DNA from: a phage | Length of the DNA: 64,000 bases | Direction: 5' to 3' (one strand) | NCBI GenBank assembly: GCA_029220445.1 | Contig: GCA_029220445.1_3666.1 | In this document: piece after piece, positions 1,809-16,019 of the stretch | Layout of the letters: each line of letters opens with the position of its first letter | Numbering within the stretch: the first letter of the stretch is position 1 | Translations under genes and position numbers: made by a program | The notes under the pieces: model-generated | The model's input: the letters and a program-made list of their open reading frames with translations, nothing else | Told to the model about the DNA's origin: nothing | Databases searched by the model: none

Positions 1809-1820
1809 AACGGTTACCCA

Positions 1821-2075
1821 TCACAGCTCTACAATATCTGCATCTGACCCTACCCCAAAGGCATAATAGGACTCTTCCCCGAAATAATATTCAGGTGCAC
1901 CAGCGGTGATCAGGTCTGATCCTAAGATAAACACCACGTTGTGGCCTACATAACTGTGATGTTGCCGCACAGGATCATCCCACGGCAACCCTTCAAAGTA
2001 TACCGCAGGGACGACCTTTCCTTTCAGGAAGGATTGCCCCAAGTAGACGTTAGAATCAAGAATTTTAACCTTCAT
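1821..2075 (-). CDS. small protein of the acidic-tail paralog family
   Basis: MKVKILDSNVYLGQ...GSDLITAGA...DIVEL; paralogous to 2065-2292 and 5624-5857. Confidence 0.5.
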   Translation of the reverse strand: MKVKILDSNVYLGQSFLKGKVVPAVYFEGLPWDDPVRQHHSYVGHNVVFILGSDLITAGAPEYYFGEESYYAFGVGSDADIVEL

Positions 2076-2292
2076 GATCGTCCTCCACTATCTCTACATC
2101 CTCACCTAGGGCAAAGTTGTAGGTCCACTGACTGTCAAAGCATTCCTGAGATGCACCAGCGGCAATAAGATCTGCCCCTTTTATTTTTAAAAGGTCAGGG
2201 TAATCTTCGTTAGGGACAGCAGTAAACACTTTCCCCACTAAAGGCTCCTGACCAATATAGAATCTTGAATCTAAAACTTTAACTTTCATCAA
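2065..2292 (-). CDS. small protein of the acidic-tail paralog family
   Basis: MMKVKVLDSRFYIGQ...KGADLIAAGA...EIVEDDHEG; tandem with 1821-2075. Confidence 0.5.
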   Translation of the reverse strand: MMKVKVLDSRFYIGQEPLVGKVFTAVPNEDYPDLLKIKGADLIAAGASQECFDSQWTYNFALGEDVEIVEDDHEG

Positions 2293-2576
2293 CGGTCTCC
2301 ATCAGGTGGTTGTGGGACGTAAACACTGTTACGAATATCGTCCGCAGTATAGTAATAAGTGTCTCCAACCCTATCTCTGGCTGCAATGTACTCTGCTATA
2401 CCAATAAGTGCCATTGATTTGGTGGCGTATCTTCCCCACTCGTTAGCTCCCCAGTAGAATTTAGACCAATAGGGAATAAGACCGAACAAATATACCTTTT
2501 GACGAACTTCCCAGTAAGTGCCTTTCCCGACAAGTTTAAACTCAACTTCACCACTGTTAATCTTTTTCATTATCAA
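2289..2576 (-). CDS. hypothetical protein
   Basis: 95-aa ORF with 4-nt overlaps to both neighbours. Confidence 0.45.
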   Translation of the reverse strand: MIMKKINSGEVEFKLVGKGTYWEVRQKVYLFGLIPYWSKFYWGANEWGRYATKSMALIGIAEYIAARDRVGDTYYYTADDIRNSVYVPQPPDGDR

Positions 2577-2869
2577 TCTCCCTCTACCGTGGTCGGATTG
2601 TCAGTAAGAAATTGAGCATTAGCTGGAGGCACACCTGACATTTTCCACACGACCATAAGTTTGTAACCAGGCACTCTATTAAGCGCAGATCGAGTAGAGT
2701 TTGTGCACGTATACTTTCGCTTTCCAAACCCGTTCTCCATCATAATCCAGTACCCAGTATCTTTGTCACCAGGTATTGGTAGACCACCTTCATCAACCCA
2801 CTGAATGGACCACGGCACGATGGCTACAGCTTTATATTTAAACTTTTTAAACCACTCAAAAAGTTTCAT
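2573..2869 (-). CDS. hypothetical protein
   Basis: 98-aa ORF, overlapping stop/start with neighbours. Confidence 0.45.
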   Translation of the reverse strand: MKLFEWFKKFKYKAVAIVPWSIQWVDEGGLPIPGDKDTGYWIMMENGFGKRKYTCTNSTRSALNRVPGYKLMVVWKMSGVPPANAQFLTDNPTTVEGD

Positions 2870-3054
2870 AATTCAGCCTCGCTTGGCAACTCTTCCACCT
2901 TAACATGCCGAAAAGTGTTACCGTAATGGTTGATCCATGACATCAGCTCACTTTCTTGCTCTTCCTCTGGGATGAACTCTCGAATACTGACAAGTTTTAA
3001 GAAAACCCAATCACAATCTGCACCCATTCTACCAGACAGACAATAGTGCTTCAT
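2866..3054 (-). CDS. hypothetical protein
   Basis: 62-aa ORF in operon-like array. Confidence 0.4.
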   Translation of the reverse strand: MKHYCLSGRMGADCDWVFLKLVSIREFIPEEEQESELMSWINHYGNTFRHVKVEELPSEAEL

Positions 3055-3073
3055 AAAAACCCTCCATCCTGGT

Positions 3074-3274
3074 TTAGAATACTGCCTCTTTTAATGATCC
3101 AAGGAGCAGCAGGTGTGAAATCTGATCCACATCCATGGTAGATTCAATCTCCTCTTTTTTGAAAGGTTCTCGGCAAAACAGTACTACATTTGGGTTTTCG
3201 CTACGCACTATATAATACAGATCGTTCAAATCATTCTCATAGTAGGTATTAAATTTAAGAATTTTGTCACTCAT
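3074..3274 (-). CDS. hypothetical protein
   Basis: 66-aa ORF. Confidence 0.4.
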   Translation of the reverse strand: MSDKILKFNTYYENDLNDLYYIVRSENPNVVLFCREPFKKEEIESTMDVDQISHLLLLGSLKEAVF

Positions 3275-3558
3275 TTTCTAATCCTCTTCTTAGATTTTTG
3301 TGCAGAAACGCTTTCTGCAATACGAGACAGGCGTTCTTCTGAAGCTTTACCTACCCCAGGTTTCTTGAGCGGGTTATCTTTATGACCGCAATCCAATTGG
3401 ATGCTAGATACCTCCCCAACCTTGTAAGTCAATTCTAACAAAAGGTTGTCGTCCTTGTCAAATGTTTTTACGATAAATTTTTTATCGTCCTCCTGAACTT
3501 CATACCTAGTACCTGCAGTATACAGCATGGTGCCATCAGTGTAGGATATCCAAATCAT
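3271..3558 (-). CDS. hypothetical protein
   Basis: 95-aa ORF with basic C-terminus. Confidence 0.45.
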   Translation of the reverse strand: MIWISYTDGTMLYTAGTRYEVQEDDKKFIVKTFDKDDNLLLELTYKVGEVSSIQLDCGHKDNPLKKPGVGKASEERLSRIAESVSAQKSKKRIRK

Positions 3559-3902
3559 TGCACCTCCTTCTGCTGCAACAGCATTAACTCTTTGTTGGAA
3601 ATCTTTACTGCTGTCTTTATTGTTCCATCTTCACGGAACCACGACCAGAATTCTACAGTGTCACCACTATCAAGCAAGGCATGACCATGGTAAAAATCCT
3701 TGTCCTTAGACAGTTTCTCATCTATATCTGCATCGACACACTCGTGATCCATAGCATTTTGCCTGAATGCATCGGTTATGCCAATGCATGCCTTGCTCTC
3801 AAGACTGGTATATCCGATATCTTTTAATTCAGTTTCCCAAGTCCAGTATCCTACAAAAGCCACAACAGCTACCCACATTAATATCGATTTAATCTTTGAC
3901 AT
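3555..3902 (-). CDS. hypothetical membrane-anchored protein
   Basis: N-terminal hydrophobic segment ILMWVAVVAFVGYW. Confidence 0.45.
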   Translation of the reverse strand: MSKIKSILMWVAVVAFVGYWTWETELKDIGYTSLESKACIGITDAFRQNAMDHECVDADIDEKLSKDKDFYHGHALLDSGDTVEFWSWFREDGTIKTAVKISNKELMLLQQKEVQ

Positions 3903-3962
3903 TCTCTCTACCTCTTTCTTAATTTGTTTAATTATGGCACATCCTTTGTGCCTTGTTGCACA

Positions 3963-4424
3963 CTACTTAAACAACAGTTCAAAATAGTGCAAAATTAACA
4001 GAAGTTGAATTACGCCTAGCACAACAGCAAGTATGTTAATCTTAGAATCAAAAAACTTCTTAACTTTTACCCTAAAAGGTTCCTTAATGTCCTTTACGAT
4101 CCTATCTATAGATGACCTCATATCCCTGATTACCATCCTGAACATTAAAGACGGATGATCCCTCTCTGTAACGGAATCGAAAACATACTCTCTTTGATCA
4201 CAAGGGCCGCCAGCTCTGCGTATTAACCTCTCCACAGAGACCTCGTACGACACACCTGTAACGTAATCATCTATGACAAGGAGTGACGGGTCTTTATCGT
4301 CCAAGGGTATCAAAGTTATCTTTCCAGATTTTGTTAAAATTTCTCCTTTTTCAAGTAAGGTGTACCAATGCTCTCTGCCAAGACTGTTGAGGCACGTTTT
4401 TACATATTTAACAAACATCGTCAC
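3963..4424 (-). CDS. hypothetical protein with C-terminal transmembrane anchor
   Basis: 153-aa ORF ending ILAVVLGVIQLLLILHYFELLFK. Confidence 0.45.
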   Translation of the reverse strand: MTMFVKYVKTCLNSLGREHWYTLLEKGEILTKSGKITLIPLDDKDPSLLVIDDYVTGVSYEVSVERLIRRAGGPCDQREYVFDSVTERDHPSLMFRMVIRDMRSSIDRIVKDIKEPFRVKVKKFFDSKINILAVVLGVIQLLLILHYFELLFK

Positions 4425-9784: not shown

Positions 9785-10135
9785 TTACTGCAACAGTTTT
9801 TCAATAGCCGCTTCCATGCTGCTTGCAACAGCCTGAACTCGGATATTCATCTCTTCTTGGTGGATCAGCTCCTTAAGCTCTTTAATGGTAAATTCTTTAG
9901 AGAAACCTTCCACCATAATCTTGTGCAAGGCTTCTTGCGTGTCTACTTGCAAGAACTTTTCCAGTTTGTTGGCAGAGGCTTCTAAATCAGCCCGAATACG
10001 AGGGTCATCTGTGCGATTCAGCATTAGACGTAAGCCATCGAGATTAGTAGAAATAGCGTCTGCATGTTGAGTAACTAACCGTGGCAAAATGAGATCTACA
10101 AACTTATTAGCCAAATCGATACGTTCTTGTGTCAC
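9785..10135 (-). CDS. hypothetical protein
   Basis: 116-aa helical ORF. Confidence 0.45.
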   Translation of the reverse strand: MTQERIDLANKFVDLILPRLVTQHADAISTNLDGLRLMLNRTDDPRIRADLEASANKLEKFLQVDTQEALHKIMVEGFSKEFTIKELKELIHQEEMNIRVQAVASSMEAAIEKLLQ

Positions 10136-10307
10136 TGTTGCACCCCCTCTTCATCCTCATGATATTTCTTTTCGCGCTTGTGTTTTTTCTTAAGCTCAAG
10201 CGCAATCTCTTTTTTGTACGCCTTCTTCAAGGCTTTTTTAGCCATTTGGCACCTCCTCTGCTTTCATTACGCTAATTATAACCAACTTAACAAAGCTTTG
10301 TCAACAA

Positions 10308-10781
10308 TTAGTCAACCTGAACCCAACCATCTGCTGCCTTTTTAAACATTCTTTGGTTATCACTACCTCTGAAGGGTTTTTTGGTGGGGTTATCTTTTTC
10401 GTACTTACCATCCATAATGTAATCGACACTATCTTTAATGTAATCGGGAACCTCTTCAAACAAATACCCTGTGTACACCCAGATAGTTTTTGTGTTGCCG
10501 AAGTGTTCACGGATAGCGCGAATGATCGAGTACATACCATCAATATTGTAAGGCGCTAAAGGTTCGCCACCGCATAATGTAACGCCAGTAATGTGTTTCG
10601 GCTCTATAGAGTGAAGTATGCTCTCAATAGTGTCATTTGTTAACGGTTCCCCTTTAGCTGGTGACCAAACACTTTTGTTTTGGCAACCGACGCAGTGATG
10701 TGGGCAACCAGAACAGAACACCGTTGTCCTAATGCCTGGGCCGTCAACCATGCTACACTCTATAATATTAACAACATTCAT
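10308..10781 (-). CDS. nrdG: anaerobic ribonucleotide reductase activating protein (radical SAM)
   Basis: N-terminal Cys cluster VFCSGCPHHCVGC typical of NrdG activases; sits next to nrdD. Confidence 0.85.
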   Translation of the reverse strand: MNVVNIIECSMVDGPGIRTTVFCSGCPHHCVGCQNKSVWSPAKGEPLTNDTIESILHSIEPKHITGVTLCGGEPLAPYNIDGMYSIIRAIREHFGNTKTIWVYTGYLFEEVPDYIKDSVDYIMDGKYEKDNPTKKPFRGSDNQRMFKKAADGWVQVD

Positions 10782-11014
10782 TCCTTATCCTCTTTTAGGT
10801 AAGGATATTCAGGCCCACAATAAGCTCTATCCAAGAAAACAGCTTCTTCCCCTCTGGAATCAGTAGATCTATAATACCCATCACCATGGTAACTAACGAA
10901 CCAGTGGCACCCATCATCGCTTTCTACTGTTGTGGCTCTGTCCGAATGAAAGATAATTTCGTAATCCTTACCGAATGTAAACCATCTGTTAGCTTTTACA
11001 CAGACACCTATCAT
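10778..11014 (-). CDS. hypothetical protein
   Basis: 78-aa ORF overlapping nrdG start by 4 nt. Confidence 0.4.
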   Translation of the reverse strand: MIGVCVKANRWFTFGKDYEIIFHSDRATTVESDDGCHWFVSYHGDGYYRSTDSRGEEAVFLDRAYCGPEYPYLKEDKE

Positions 11015-11165
11015 AAGGAACCTCTCTTCTGTGATGTGCTTCTATTCAAGATAAACCTATAAAAGTCCATTTGATGAAGCCGTATAACTTTTTATACTTA
11101 CGCTTCAGTGCTAACAATTTTATCTTGATTTTCTTGATAGATTTCCGCATTTCGACCCCTTATGC

Positions 11166-11282
11166 TTATAAGTACTCCGCATCGCATTCAGGGCAATGAC
11201 AAATAAAATCGTCCAGTGCCTTGCACCAACGAAGATTGCAACGACAACCACACTTGCAAATTTTATAAATACCTGATGACAT
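11166..11282 (-). CDS. 38-aa cysteine-rich small ORF (possible zinc-binding peptide)
   Basis: ATG at 11282 preceded by GGAGGTG; MSSGIYKICKCGCRCNLRWCKALDDFICHCPECDAEYL has 8 Cys and 1 His; below the 60-aa track cutoff. Confidence 0.3.
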   Translation of the reverse strand: MSSGIYKICKCGCRCNLRWCKALDDFICHCPECDAEYL

Positions 11283-11334
11283 ACTGCACCTCCTTAGTTA
11301 ATAGCATGTTTAAGATATGCATATCTTTCTACAA

Positions 11335-12462
11335 TCATTTACCACAAATCTTCTTGTATACCTCTTCTACCGTGTCAAACACTTCAGGCCTGTAGTAGAA
11401 AAACTCAGTGCTACCGTCAAATTTTACAGGAAAGTTTATTTTATACTTGCTGAAGGCCTTATGCACAGATTTTTCTAAATCTGCCATGTTTTGAGTTGAT
11501 CCTTCCCACGTTTTCGCCAGGTAGAGATCATAAATACCTGCCCCTGCCCTTTTGGCACTTTTCAATATCCTATCTTTTCTCTCTTCGACACTGACGCTAA
11601 TACCGATCTTCATAAGTGTTGGTACTTCTAAGTCATCAACCATAATGTAAAGTTTGCCGTGATTGTACGATAAAAAGCCGTAGTTAGCACATCTAGGGCA
11701 CCCATGTCCTTGCTTGAGCCTAATAGGAGCAGGAGACCATTCATAATCACAAATCTTACATCTACATAATACTTTTGCACTACCGTTTTTAATTTTTCCA
11801 AGCACTTTAATACTTGGATTGACAACCTTTATATGCCCTACCCATTCCACATGGGATCTCTTTGCATTGCCTTTACATCTAGGACACCCATGCCCTCGTT
11901 TAAGATGGGATGGTCTTGCTAGCCATTCATGACTGCAAATTTTGCATCGTGCCAATACTGGTGTATCGCTATTTTTAACTCTTTCTACTATTTCAATATA
12001 TGTATTTTTCTTCGTTATGTCCTCGACCCACTCGGTATGGGCTATAGCTCTGCTTTGTGCGAATTTTAGCTTGCCGCATCTAGGGCACCCATGTCCTTGT
12101 TTAAGAAGATAAGGCATTGCTGACCATTCATGACTGCAAATTTTGCAGCGGCACGGCACTTTTGTTCTGCAGCTTATTATTTCTCCAATCACTTCGACAT
12201 AAGGATTGACCTCTTGGATAACATTCAACCACTCCTTGTGTGGTATAATGTGGCTTTGTGCCATTTTTAGCTTTCCACATTCCCGGCAGCCTCGTCCTGC
12301 AAGGTGTTGGTGGGTAGCTTGTTCAAATTCTCCATGATATGGGCAGATAATTATAACCTTGGTGCAGGCATTTACATACTCAACCTTAGAGTAATCATAC
12401 TTATCTCCATGAACTGCTTTTGCCTTCTTTATAAACTCATCTGTTGTAAGTTTTCTGGACAC
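11335..12462 (-). CDS. free-standing putative homing endonuclease: three zinc-ribbon repeats plus C-terminal GIY-YIG/T5orf172-like domain
   Basis: three repeats of CxICxHEW...KxGHGCPRC; C-terminal LYIMVDD...KIGIS...ERKDRI resembles a GIY-YIG core; inserted between nrdG and nrdD. Confidence 0.6.
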   Translation of the reverse strand: MSRKLTTDEFIKKAKAVHGDKYDYSKVEYVNACTKVIIICPYHGEFEQATHQHLAGRGCRECGKLKMAQSHIIPHKEWLNVIQEVNPYVEVIGEIISCRTKVPCRCKICSHEWSAMPYLLKQGHGCPRCGKLKFAQSRAIAHTEWVEDITKKNTYIEIVERVKNSDTPVLARCKICSHEWLARPSHLKRGHGCPRCKGNAKRSHVEWVGHIKVVNPSIKVLGKIKNGSAKVLCRCKICDYEWSPAPIRLKQGHGCPRCANYGFLSYNHGKLYIMVDDLEVPTLMKIGISVSVEERKDRILKSAKRAGAGIYDLYLAKTWEGSTQNMADLEKSVHKAFSKYKINFPVKFDGSTEFFYYRPEVFDTVEEVYKKICGK

Positions 12463-12528
12463 TGCTGAACCTTCTTAGCTCTAATCTTTGAACTAAGTGT
12501 GCCACATCCTTGTGGCTTTTGTCAAGTA

Positions 12529-14652
12529 TCAGCAACCACAACTTCCGTAGTGCTTAACCCGTTCTATAACTTCCGCTTGCTTACCTTTATTGTAAGGACG
12601 GGAGTTAGGACTGGAAAGGTATCCAGACACTCTTCGGATCACTGAGATATATTGTTCATCGTGGCATCCGCACGCAGGGCAGCAGAACCCTTTAGCTGTT
12701 GCACTGAACTCACCAGAGAAACCACACTTGAGACATTTATCCACAGGTTGGTTAATACCAAAATACATAATGTGTTTATACCCGAAGTCAACAAGAGCCT
12801 CTAAAGCATCAAGGTTGTTTTTCAGGTTAGGTGTCTCTACGTATCCGATGTTGCCACCGGAGGAGATCATAGCAAAACCTTCCTCATACTCCCACTTATC
12901 AAAAGGAGAGCTATTGATCCATACTGGCTGATGGAAACTGTTGGTGAGATATTCATGCTCGTGCTTTAACACTTCTGGATATTCACGATCCAGACAGGTT
13001 GCAGCTTTATAGCATAGACTCTCAGAAGGAGTGCCGTACAAGCTAAATGCTAGTCTACTTTCCTTCTTGTATCGCTCACAAGCATCTCTCATGTGCTGAA
13101 GGATTCCAAGAGCTAAAGCCTTGTCACCTTCTCTGCCCAAAATCTGACAGGTTTCATACACACCAATGTACCCAATGCTGATGGAAGCGTACCCGTCATA
13201 GAAGAGTTTATCAATACTCTCTTCAGGGTCCAGGCGAGCAAGAGCGCCTTCACACCACATGATAGGGTTCTGCCCTGCCTTTGTCCCTTTTAGACGATTA
13301 ACCCTTACAAGGTGAGCCTCGTATGCAAGATCCAGGTATTCGTCAAGAACTGCAAAGAAATCAACACCTTCCGTTTTAGCTTTTGCCGCAATCATTGGCA
13401 GGTTAAGGCTAACAACGCCTAAGTTAAATCTGCCAAGGTATTTCTCCTCGCCTGTTTCCAAGTCATTGTATTTGCTAAGAAAACTCCGGCAACCCATGCT
13501 CGTTACTTTACCATCTGTCGAGCCTGTCACTTTACGATTTAGTGGAACAGAAACAAAGTCAGGATAAATCCGCTCTGCAGAGCATTCCAGAGCTAATCGT
13601 TTCAAATCATAGTTAGGATCTCCAGGGTTCATGTTGACACCCTCTTCTAGGAAGAACAACACTTTAGGGAACACAGGTGTGATACGTTCTTCACCAAGAC
13701 CCATTTTGTGGACTTTCAAGTAGTTTTTGGTAATCATTCTACCAAAGACTGAGGTGTCCAGACCTAAACTTAATGTGATGAATGGGGTTTGCCCGTTGAC
13801 AGAAGTTAACGTATTGATTTGATAGAGCAAAGTCTGCATGCTGTCAAATACGTCTTTATCTGTCATCTGCATTGCAACAGTCTCAGCATCTGGCAACCAA
13901 TGTTCCTGGCAAAATTTAAGGTTCTTCTCATAAGTCGCCTCAGCATACTGTGCCAGATAATGATCAATATGGCTCATAGTCTGACCCCCATATTGAGCAC
14001 TAGCTACCGCACTAGAGATTTGGCTAAGGATTGTTGTTGCAACCCCTATTGACTTCGGCTTACTGACATGGGCGTTACCAATGTTGAATCCGTTTTCCAA
14101 CATATCTGGATAATTTACCAAACAACAGTTTGTTAACGGACTGATCAAGTAGTCAAGATCATGCACATGGATGAAGCCTTTATTGTGCTCTTCTGAGACA
14201 CGGTCTGGCAGGATCTGTGTTGATGCAAGGTGTTTGCTAAGGATGCCTGCAAGCAGGTCACGATGAGTGTGTACATGATTGGTAGGCTTATTTGCGTTTT
14301 CTTTTGTAAATTCATCACAAGTTCGATCCAAGAAGCCACTAATATCTGCAAGCAGTTTTCCACCTGCCTCTCTGTTATTATCTCTTGTCTGTCTATACTG
14401 GATGTATTCTCTGGCTGCACATTTTAAACCCATATCCATAAGAGCATCTTCAACAAGGATATGGATATTTTTTACAGAGATCGTGCACTGGTCGGTTGGT
14501 AGATTGTTAGCAACAACTTCATTAACCGCACAAGCGATCCGGTAAGCTTCTTCTTCAGTATGTCCAGACTCAAGTAAGGCGGACTCTGCCGCCTTGATCA
14601 CCTTAATTCCGTTATAGACCTCTTCTCTACCGTCCCGTTTTACAACTTTCAC
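12529..14652 (-). CDS. nrdD: anaerobic ribonucleoside-triphosphate reductase (class III)
   Basis: C-terminal CxxC zinc site and glycyl-radical motif RVSGYL; 707 aa. Confidence 0.9.
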   Translation of the reverse strand: MKVVKRDGREEVYNGIKVIKAAESALLESGHTEEEAYRIACAVNEVVANNLPTDQCTISVKNIHILVEDALMDMGLKCAAREYIQYRQTRDNNREAGGKLLADISGFLDRTCDEFTKENANKPTNHVHTHRDLLAGILSKHLASTQILPDRVSEEHNKGFIHVHDLDYLISPLTNCCLVNYPDMLENGFNIGNAHVSKPKSIGVATTILSQISSAVASAQYGGQTMSHIDHYLAQYAEATYEKNLKFCQEHWLPDAETVAMQMTDKDVFDSMQTLLYQINTLTSVNGQTPFITLSLGLDTSVFGRMITKNYLKVHKMGLGEERITPVFPKVLFFLEEGVNMNPGDPNYDLKRLALECSAERIYPDFVSVPLNRKVTGSTDGKVTSMGCRSFLSKYNDLETGEEKYLGRFNLGVVSLNLPMIAAKAKTEGVDFFAVLDEYLDLAYEAHLVRVNRLKGTKAGQNPIMWCEGALARLDPEESIDKLFYDGYASISIGYIGVYETCQILGREGDKALALGILQHMRDACERYKKESRLAFSLYGTPSESLCYKAATCLDREYPEVLKHEHEYLTNSFHQPVWINSSPFDKWEYEEGFAMISSGGNIGYVETPNLKNNLDALEALVDFGYKHIMYFGINQPVDKCLKCGFSGEFSATAKGFCCPACGCHDEQYISVIRRVSGYLSSPNSRPYNKGKQAEVIERVKHYGSCGC

Positions 14653-14927
14653 TTTTTCTCTCCAAAACCATTCTTAACAAAAGAGATGAAATCGTCGGCA
14701 CCGCCTATATGGACACTTTCAAGATTGCTTTCTAAGAAGATCTGCGGCAACGTTCTGGGTACGATTGGACTGCACTTCTCAATAAGCTCTTCTTTTGTGT
14801 AACCCTCGCCAAGTGTCTTATATACAAAAGGCAGACCTTTACTGACTGCAAATTCTTTTGCTCTTACACAATGTGGGCAGTTATCTTTACCGTAAATAAT
14901 AAAGAAAAAAGATTTTTCACAGCTCAT
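14649..14927 (-). CDS. glutaredoxin-like redoxin
   Basis: CPHCVRAKEF active site in a 92-aa protein between nrdD and nrdB. Confidence 0.75.
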   Translation of the reverse strand: MSCEKSFFFIIYGKDNCPHCVRAKEFAVSKGLPFVYKTLGEGYTKEELIEKCSPIVPRTLPQIFLESNLESVHIGGADDFISFVKNGFGEKK

Positions 14928-14930
14928 GTA

Positions 14931-16019
14931 TTAAAACTCCCAAATTTCTTCTTCAGCGTCATTAACAGTTGTGTTGACGCGGTAGTCAGTGTTCGACATT
15001 TCTTGGTTCGCCGTCTGTTGCAATGAAGGTTTCATCCACACCTGCATAAACGGTAGAGGGTCCTTTGTTGGCGGCACAAAGTCTTTGTCGATGCCGTAGT
15101 AATCATAAATCGGTGAGCAGTTATAGTCAACCCATTCTTTAAGCAACGGTGAGTTAAGACCTATAATCGCTCTTCCTTCGCTGAAAATATAGTCACTCCA
15201 ACCGTACTCTTTGGTTCGTACTTCATCAAGAATCTCTTTTAACTCCCCTTTTATCTCAAGGAAGCTTTTCTCCCATGCTGGATCATTAAGCAGGATATCA
15301 ATGATGGCAAAATCACCTTTCGAGTGTAGCATTTCGTCAAGCATGATTTTTTGAACAAGCTGCGCCACCTGAACAAAAATACCCTGTTCAGCTACTGCGA
15401 AAGTGCATGCAAAACTTGCAATAAACTCAATACTTTCCAGAGCTAAAAGTGCAAAAAGCGCTCTAAGAATGCATTTCCGCACAATATCTTCTTCAACACT
15501 AGAAGGATCCAGTCGGTATTTTGCACCAATAACCTCAAGCTCTTGCATGTACTTGACAATAACGCCAGATCTGCTCAGAACGTTTTGGTTTTCCTGAATC
15601 TCTTCTATAATCTCACGGGCATTGGGGAGGCATTGTCTAACAATCTCTGAGTAAGTTAGTGCGTGAAGAACTTCAATCTCTGACTGTTTCATCAATAGAG
15701 TGAAAAGCTCACTATTAGTGATGAATGGTGAAAAGAGGCAGATGATCGATCTTGCCGCAACGCTATCAGCCTCCCATTGCCACATCAAGGTCTGCACCAT
15801 TACATCATAAGTTGACTTGGAGCATGTTACAAAATCTGAAATAGATTGCGACAAATCCACTTCATCCTCTGCCCAGTCTTGTTCTTTTTGTTTTTTGTAC
15901 AGTTCGAACAGTTGTGGATATTTTTTGTTGATAGAGTCGTACATACCCATTTGCTGTCCCAGAAACAGCGGATAGTCACCAGTTTTATGAGCGGTGTTCT
16001 CAGCATTAAATACAGCCAT
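14931..16019 (-). CDS. nrdB: ribonucleotide reductase class Ia beta subunit
   Basis: ferritin-like R2 fold motifs; start moved to ATG at 16019 (MAVFNAENT, GAGGT upstream) from the track's 16079. Confidence 0.9.
   Translation of the reverse strand: MAVFNAENTAHKTGDYPLFLGQQMGMYDSINKKYPQLFELYKKQKEQDWAEDEVDLSQSISDFVTCSKSTYDVMVQTLMWQWEADSVAARSIICLFSPFITNSELFTLLMKQSEIEVLHALTYSEIVRQCLPNAREIIEEIQENQNVLSRSGVIVKYMQELEVIGAKYRLDPSSVEEDIVRKCILRALFALLALESIEFIASFACTFAVAEQGIFVQVAQLVQKIMLDEMLHSKGDFAIIDILLNDPAWEKSFLEIKGELKEILDEVRTKEYGWSDYIFSEGRAIIGLNSPLLKEWVDYNCSPIYDYYGIDKDFVPPTKDPLPFMQVWMKPSLQQTANQEMSNTDYRVNTTVNDAEEEIWEF

Follow-up and report, generated by a model that had tools for sequence, protein, structure and literature searches.

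A putative T5orf172 homing endonuclease gene with four zinc modules in the nrdD-orf38 spacer of a Vequintavirus

Barth, Dunham and Seed (NAR Genomics and Bioinformatics 2023; PMC10448857) have described T5orf172 homing endonuclease genes (HEGs) that carry repeated CapR/DUF723/DUF4379-type zinc fingers. These zinc fingers were present in 87% of 229 T5orf172 genes, often in several copies per protein. The genes often lie beside essential genes, with ribonucleotide reductase (RNR) genes in 33% of the neighbourhoods; they are found at the boundaries of exchanged segments, and recombination within and between them swaps DNA-binding and nuclease parts (PMC10448857). Vequintaviruses are not mentioned in that study. 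The only T5orf172 member that we found with demonstrated cleavage is the origin-directed nuclease Odn (Gp88) of phage ICP1, a domesticated relative (PMC8263062). In addition, the paper on the BASEL collection reported that larger phage genomes are heavily infested with homing endonucleases (PMC8594841).

We analyzed a 64,000-nucleotide stretch of phage DNA (GenBank assembly GCA_029220445.1, contig GCA_029220445.1_3666.1; hereafter, the window), which belongs to a Vequintavirus (i.e., an rV5-like coliphage), the region under study being 93–97% identical to such E. coli phages. A 375-aa ORF in the window resembles the T5orf172 HEGs of ICP1, T5-like, and other phages (PMC10448857) in its N-terminal zinc modules and C-terminal T5orf172 domain, and also in being free-standing and RNR-adjoining, in module shuffling and inter-allele recombination, and in its position at an exchange boundary. 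It differs from them in its Vequintavirus host lineage, in its four-module array, and in its site, the spacer between nrdD and a small ORF (orf38), where at least five alleles occur. With a probability of about 0.8, we regard this ORF as a free-standing HEG of the T5orf172 branch of the GIY-YIG superfamily; the gene is selfish and probably mobile. The class has already been described, alleles in relatives have already been annotated, and a gene of this kind is ordinary for such phages. Taken alone, the result is therefore routine annotation that turns a hypothetical ORF into a putative T5orf172 homing endonuclease. What interest it adds is modest and comes from a single junction with a clean series of at least five alleles, from an intragenic crossover, and from a possible nrdD-coupled leader.

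Zinc-module array and nuclease domain of the 375-aa protein

The ORF occupies positions 11335..12462 of the minus strand, with a GTG start and its stop at 11335–11337, as delimited by the ORF list, Pfam, and PHROGs (families 559 and 681, both labelled "endonuclease"). Its N-terminus, M/V-S-R-K-L-T-T-D-E-F, aligns with those of the homologues (M-x-RKLT-x-EEF in alignment A1, which comprises 27 homologues of 44–57% identity), and the GTG start is credible for that reason. The LYIMVDD, KIGIS, and ERKDRI motifs named in an earlier, sequence-only reading of this DNA are all present. The protein belongs to a very large family (over 3,000 members at E ≤ 1e-10), and a tblastn search revealed no paralogue within the window.

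That reading had counted three zinc-ribbon repeats. Self-alignment of the protein instead resolved four modules of ~62–69 aa, all located N-terminal to the nuclease domain, the extra one being an N-terminal, DUF723-like variant (CPYH...GCRECG), whereas modules 2–4 share the pattern CKIC..EW...GHGCPRC. Direct DNA repeats match the modules, with spacings of 186, 201, and 201 nt. Three stretches match the Pfam family DUF4379, a "probable treble-clef zinc finger" (E 3e-16; 59.7 bits, with the cutoff at 24.5), and CapR matches as well (E 3e-12); the best DUF4379/CapR stretch is that in module 3 (aa 150/151–197/198). Module 1 (aa 1–69; 12256..12462, minus strand) was delimited by repeat alignment, a weak Pfam DUF723 stretch at aa 27–63, and a confident AlphaFold2 model, and its proposed ligands, by motif position, are C40/H43/C59/C62. 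Modules 2–4, all on the minus strand and delimited by Pfam, alignment, and repeats, comprise aa 70–137 (DUF4379/CapR-like; 12052..12255), aa 138–200 (11863..12051), and aa 201–262 (11677..11862), with proposed ligands C106/C109/C126/C129, C173/C176/C193/C196, and C235/C238/C255/C258, respectively. The cysteines (and one histidine) expected as ligands, which were assigned by motif, are mostly invariant or nearly so in alignment A1. Profile matches and motif positions thus point to CapR/DUF723/DUF4379 modules with four putative metal ligands each, and these modules would be the DNA-binding part of the protein. An AlphaFold2 model of the full protein, built with the 27 homologues, reached a mean pLDDT of 87.5 and a pTM of only 0.49; the latter is low because the modules fold independently, as beads on a string. 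When this model was compared with the PDB using Foldseek, only DUF4379 mitoribosomal proteins matched, with a weak match to Slx1, and a search of the PDB with a sequence profile returned DUF4379 proteins only and no nuclease.

The remainder of the protein (aa 263–375; 11338..11676, minus strand) is assigned to a T5orf172, GIY-YIG-fold nuclease domain by Pfam, modelling, and invariant residues. The T5orf172 profile (PF10544) covers aa 272–372 (E 5.5e-11; 43.3 bits, with the cutoff at 20; profile positions 4–100 of 101), and the related MUG113 profile also matches (30 bits against a cutoff of 22.3). GIY-YIG itself (PF01541) gave no Pfam match at E ≤ 1 in the 375-aa protein. Modelled alone, the domain yielded a pLDDT of 93.7 and a pTM of 0.84, with the predicted order beta-beta-alpha-beta-alpha-beta-alpha of a GIY-YIG alpha/beta fold. 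Y272, K285, G287, R295, E330, H334, and E353 are invariant in alignment A1, and in a BLASTP alignment with Odn (E 2e-4), R295 and E330 fall opposite Odn R148 and E180, respectively; their equivalence to I-TevI R27 and E75 is one of motif order, not of superposition. The Odn E180A substitution abolishes cleavage both in vitro and in vivo (PMC8263062). The putative catalytic Arg and Glu and the Tyr of the first motif are thus conserved; the second motif has another residue in place of the "YIG" Tyr (KIG), a typical trait of T5orf172 domains. Since profile, fold, and residue levels agree, the nuclease motifs proposed earlier hold up, with T5orf172 above its gathering threshold, and the protein would be an endonuclease.

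The same reading had described the domain order as the reverse of the usual one. The nuclease domain is indeed C-terminal, but this is the norm for T5orf172 HEGs (PMC10448857) and not unusual. The canonical GIY-YIG HEGs, I-TevI and T4 Seg, carry an N-terminal GIY-YIG domain with both Tyr motifs followed by C-terminal NUMOD/HTH elements, none of which applies here; with its C-terminal nuclease, K-I-G second motif, and zinc ribbons, the window protein is related to them at the superfamily level only. Compared with Odn, the T5orf172 domain is homologous and its Arg and Glu are conserved, but the window protein differs from Odn in its zinc modules and in its occurrence as an insertion polymorphism.

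Zinc modules of this type could also serve a site-specific DNA-binding regulator that does not cleave, acting by CapR-like repression or I-TevI-like autorepression, given that the CapR transcriptional repressor derives from the same modules and that I-TevI doubles as a repressor (PMC10448857). We give this explanation very little weight: CapR-type regulators lack a T5orf172 domain, while the window protein retains a full one, with all family-invariant residues and the equivalents of the Odn catalytic Arg and Glu among them, and the gene is dispensable in most relatives.

Insertion site and alleles at the nrdD-orf38 spacer

The genes upstream of the HEG on the same strand are nrdB, a glutaredoxin gene, and nrdD. 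The last of these (12529..14652, minus strand) is the conserved gene directly upstream of the insertion; it encodes 707 aa that match PHROG 487 end to end, confirming that nrdD is uninterrupted. The HEG had been placed between nrdG and nrdD. It does lie between them, but its direct downstream neighbour is not nrdG: on the minus strand, it is followed by orf38, a 38-aa Cys-rich ORF (11166..11282; PHROG 20137) with a strong Shine-Dalgarno (SD) sequence (TAAGGAGG), by a 34-aa ORF (11046–11150), by a 78-aa ORF (10778–11014), and only then by nrdG (10308–10781).

Using blastn against rV5 and the junction sequences, we delimited an inserted cassette of 1200 bp (11300..12499, minus strand), which replaces 16 aligned bases (~19 nt by inspection) of the rV5 nrdD-orf38 spacer; on either side of it, window positions 10000–11299 and 12500–15000 align to contiguous rV5 sequence (L001, positions 501–1799 and 1816–4316). 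Read in the direction of the genes, the empty site is nrdD-TGA TACTTGACAAAA GCCACAAGGATGTGGCA / TATTGTTGGCACAGTGAAC / TAGGAGGTACAGT ATG(orf38), where the middle segment of ~19 nt is the one replaced in the window. The insertion leaves intact the nrdD stop codon, the hairpin behind it, and the SD of orf38. This hairpin, GCCACA-AGGA-UGUGGC (12501..12516, minus strand), is found immediately behind the nrdD stop whether the site is empty or occupied; the left insertion junction comes right after the hairpin (GUGGCA/), and the right one lies just before the orf38 SD. The base composition of the insert is not distinct from that of its flanks. We also considered rV5 gp109 (75 aa; L001 1621–1848), which starts with TTG and overlaps the stop codon of nrdD, as a gene disrupted by the insertion. 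It was rejected, and looks to be in the wrong frame, because the conserved gene here is the 38-aa ORF with its strong SD, which is left intact.

The product of orf38 is MSSGIYKICKCGCRCNLRWCKALDDFICHCPECDAEYL, and the "ribonucleotide reductase" label of PHROG 20137 comes from propagated annotation. Every relative examined has this ORF, and its position is invariably between nrdD and nrdG. In addition, ~70 nt of the rV5 orf38 region matches, at 83% identity, an unannotated spot (NC_019403.1, 18870–18938) of vB_EcoP_ACG-C91, an unrelated 43.7-kb E. coli podophage; this small Cys-rich ORF may have a wider distribution.

To assess the occupancy of the site, related GenBank phage records were searched with a 201-nt probe spanning the rV5 junction, and a junction was counted as uninterrupted when at least 80% of the probe length matched in one piece. 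This analysis uncovered an uninterrupted empty junction in 92 of 122 records, and a larger probe, applied to 60 evenly sampled records out of 120, agreed with this result. The gene is therefore not a constant feature of the locus in relatives, most of which have the empty site on which the homing reading depended. About a quarter of the records have no uninterrupted junction, and in all of those that we inspected the site is taken by a different allele from this family. Scans of IMG/VR with junction patterns gave 0 matches for the occupied and 2 for the empty form, numbers too small to be informative. The window allele itself was found in only one of ~120 GenBank relatives, ECML-10, where it is unannotated (98.9% aa identity). 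An identical 375-aa protein is encoded on six assembled contigs of ~135–139 kb from metagenomic/SRA data, three of which were inspected (L009, L010, and L011).

The other alleles share ~40–50% amino-acid identity with the window protein. They measure 310 aa in naam and I29, 330 aa in WalterGehring, and 386 aa in both Mangalyan and SophiaRose, against 375 aa here, and their module sets differ. Existing annotations read "putative homing endonuclease" (WalterGehring, bas51_0186), "putative GIY-YIG nuclease family protein" (SophiaRose_117), and "phage T5 ORF172 domain containing protein" (I29_104); the remaining alleles are naam_182 and Mangalyan_119. Family, orientation, and spacer are the same throughout; the left junction is mostly common and the right one is common in three of four. 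More specifically, the left junction (…GATGTGGCA/C…) is exactly common to the window, Mangalyan, WalterGehring, and SophiaRose alleles, and the right junction before the orf38 SD is common to the window, naam, Mangalyan, and WalterGehring alleles, while the SophiaRose 3' flank differs. The locus thus displays a presence/absence polymorphism at a fixed site with clean junctions.

The naam type (naam, L003 2768–2990; I29, L008) departs from the window allele on its nrdD side. The last ~120 nt of nrdD (approximately window 12500–12650) are recoded: over 20 changes, most of them synonymous, are spread through the region of the glycyl-radical motif, and the nrdD product ends in a new tail, VGNVDCCPLSK. 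The HEG is preceded by an intrinsic terminator and a sigma-70-like promoter (TTGACT/TATAGT). This pattern suggests that the target of the naam type lies in the nrdD 3' end. The window allele, which comes with no such recoded end, terminator, or promoter of its own, is likely read through from nrdD.

The distribution of the gene also bears on a further explanation, namely that the nuclease has been domesticated and is kept for cutting competitors, be they phages in the same infection (marker exclusion) or a satellite, with no homing involved. There is precedent for this in ICP1 Odn, a T5orf172 domain co-opted for defence (PMC8263062), and Barth et al. have proposed similar co-option for E. coli phages (PMC10448857); purifying selection on the gene (see below) would fit as well. 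Nevertheless, we consider it unlikely. A gene that is missing from ~75% of close relatives and replaced by other alleles at its junction has the distribution of a selfish insertion rather than that of a retained accessory function, and the DNA-binding part is a standard HEG zinc array with no captured specificity domain such as RepA_N. PADLOC and NCBIfam returned nothing meaningful for the 375-aa protein, and the reading as a defence system is therefore unsupported. Since cutting competitors that lack the HEG amounts mechanistically to homing, this explanation also overlaps with the preferred one.

Mosaic flanks, purifying selection, and a predicted leader RNA

The same element was found in different genomic backgrounds and recombination tracts. 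The window combines a Murica-like nrdD 3' haplotype and an intact nrdD with the rV5-type downstream block (i.e., the 34-aa and 78-aa ORFs), and ECML-10 combines an rV5-like nrdD 3' haplotype with the Murica-type downstream block. In L009 and L010, nrdD is split at window position 13792/13793, and in L011, near 13456–13492.

Mismatch maps further revealed a recombination breakpoint at 11431..11452, in the nuclease-coding region. On the 3' side of the gene, window positions 11100–11451 follow the naam haplotype with a single mismatch, compared with ~20 differences from ECML-10 and L009, so that the naam type and the window are almost identical over the final ~115 nt of the ORF and in the flank downstream of it. 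On the 5' side, positions 11452–12499 follow the ECML-10/L009 haplotype and are highly diverged from naam. We therefore place a crossover within the T5orf172-coding region, and by these maps the window copy is itself a mosaic recombinant.

Several observations on the surrounding region may be of use for those who annotate these phages or build phylogenies from them, as they should be warned that the nrdD-nrdG region is a recombination mosaic. Block 10420–11172 occurs in two forms: the rV5 type (window and naam), with the 34-aa and 78-aa ORFs before nrdG, and the Murica type (ECML-10, L009–L011, and many others), in which the 38-aa ORF overlaps nrdG and homology resumes at 10419, inside nrdG. 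In nrdD, positions 12630–12690 (C-terminal zinc-ribbon region) form two deep haplotypes that differ at ~22 of 60 nt in otherwise ~96% identical phages: FCCPACGCHDEQY in the window, Murica, naam, and SophiaRose, and FVCPECGNHEEGT in rV5, ECML-10, Mangalyan, and WalterGehring. We considered an HEG-linked "immune" haplotype at the nrdD 3' end and rejected it, as the two forms are not correlated with HEG presence; they do not co-vary with the window allele and therefore offer no pointer to the target site. Furthermore, nrdD is the site of insertions in relatives (L002, L009, L010, and L011) that are absent from the window. One of these, of ~800 bp at 13792/13793, contains a 177-aa ORF with a weak HNH_3 match in its L009 copy, and other phages annotate an "HNH homing endonuclease" at this position, with nrdD in two pieces. 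The second site, near 13456–13492, holds a 169-aa ORF in L011.

Within the HEG, the window differs from L009–L011 at 11–12 nt with zero amino-acid changes, and from ECML-10 in 14 synonymous versus 3 non-synonymous codons. Judging from these substitutions, purifying selection acts on the protein, and this speaks against its being a dead relic. HEGs often degenerate once fixed, and the rarity of this allele (one of ~120 GenBank relatives plus six metagenomic/SRA contigs) could be read as that of an inactive, decaying gene fixed in a small lineage. However, the ORF is intact and full length with all invariant residues, the substitutions are almost all synonymous (11–12 versus 0; 14 versus 3), and the same allele sits in several flank backgrounds, which makes decay highly improbable in our view.

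With regard to expression, no promoter or terminator of note was found on the coding strand between nrdD and the HEG, and transcription by read-through from nrdD is therefore likely. A leader RNA structure is predicted for the 74 nt from the last nrdD codons to the GUG start (12462..12535, minus strand; MFE −32.4 kcal/mol, z −4.6). In this fold, the nrdD end UUGCUGA, which includes the UGA stop (12529–12531), pairs with UCAGCAG, whose last letter is the first base of GUG, and a second predicted hairpin sequesters the SD AAGAAGG (12470–12476). A homologous leader with the same predicted fold (z −6.6) precedes the SophiaRose allele, even though the two alleles share only ~41% aa identity, and there the stem of the SD hairpin shows a G-U to A-U change. 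This type of leader occurs in only 3 phage records, with two distinct sequences. As modelled, the structure probably damps translation of the HEG by sequestering its SD and GUG. According to Gibb and Edgell, sequestered ribosome-binding sites reportedly restrain phage HEGs such as I-TevI and mobE.

Proposed homing at the spacer and its significance

The explanations weighed above each fit less well than a homing endonuclease because the gene is dispensable in three-quarters of relatives, the catalytic domain is complete, and purifying selection acts on the protein. Empty sites, clean junctions, and nuclease motifs thus support the homing-endonuclease reading first made from the sequence; DNA binding by the modules, cleavage, homing, the location of the target, and translational control are what we infer. 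We propose that the four zinc-ribbon modules would bind, as beads on a string, a long target that lies in or close to the empty spacer, or in the adjoining conserved genes, and that the T5orf172 domain would cut close to the bound target. In a mixed infection, genomes with an empty nrdD-orf38 junction would be cleaved, and recombinational repair off the HEG-carrying genome would transfer a copy of the 1.2-kb cassette to the cut genome, along with flanking sequence of variable length. In the carrier, the site would be protected, since its spacer is split or replaced by the insertion, and expression would probably depend on read-through from nrdD. Part of the evidence has a second possible source, in that ordinary phage recombination, acting on a variable locus, could also produce the presence/absence pattern along with the mosaic flanks.

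We know of no T5orf172 HEG for which cleavage or homing has been shown at its own site, and the homing of this class so far appears to have been inferred only. Neither PMC10448857 nor PMC8263062 reports such a case. The present series of at least five T5orf172 alleles at one spacer could reveal recognition rules for zinc arrays and could give the first experimental case of T5orf172 homing, along with an nrdD-coupled leader, although we hold this as a tentative expectation with a rather modest chance of coming true. If it did, recognition rules would become readable, provided that it is settled whether different arrays bind the same target, and homing by a T5orf172 HEG could be demonstrated for the first time in a tractable E. 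coli system. Pairing of the leader with the nrdD end would then gate HEG translation by the ribosomes that terminate on nrdD; host-gene-coupled control of this kind has not been described for the T5orf172 HEG class. A public E. coli phage collection contains both an occupied site (WalterGehring) and empty sites (DrSchubert, CarlMeissner, MaxTheCat, and AlexBoehm), and therefore homing, target recognition, and RNR co-conversion are directly measurable.

Finally, the database searches brought up an oddity of labelling. Approximately 18–20 "Campylobacter phage" records (MG065644–MG065690, host Campylobacter jejuni) are 93–97% identical to E. coli Vequintaviruses over window positions 10000–15000, and these records are probably mislabelled or derived from contaminating coliphages.
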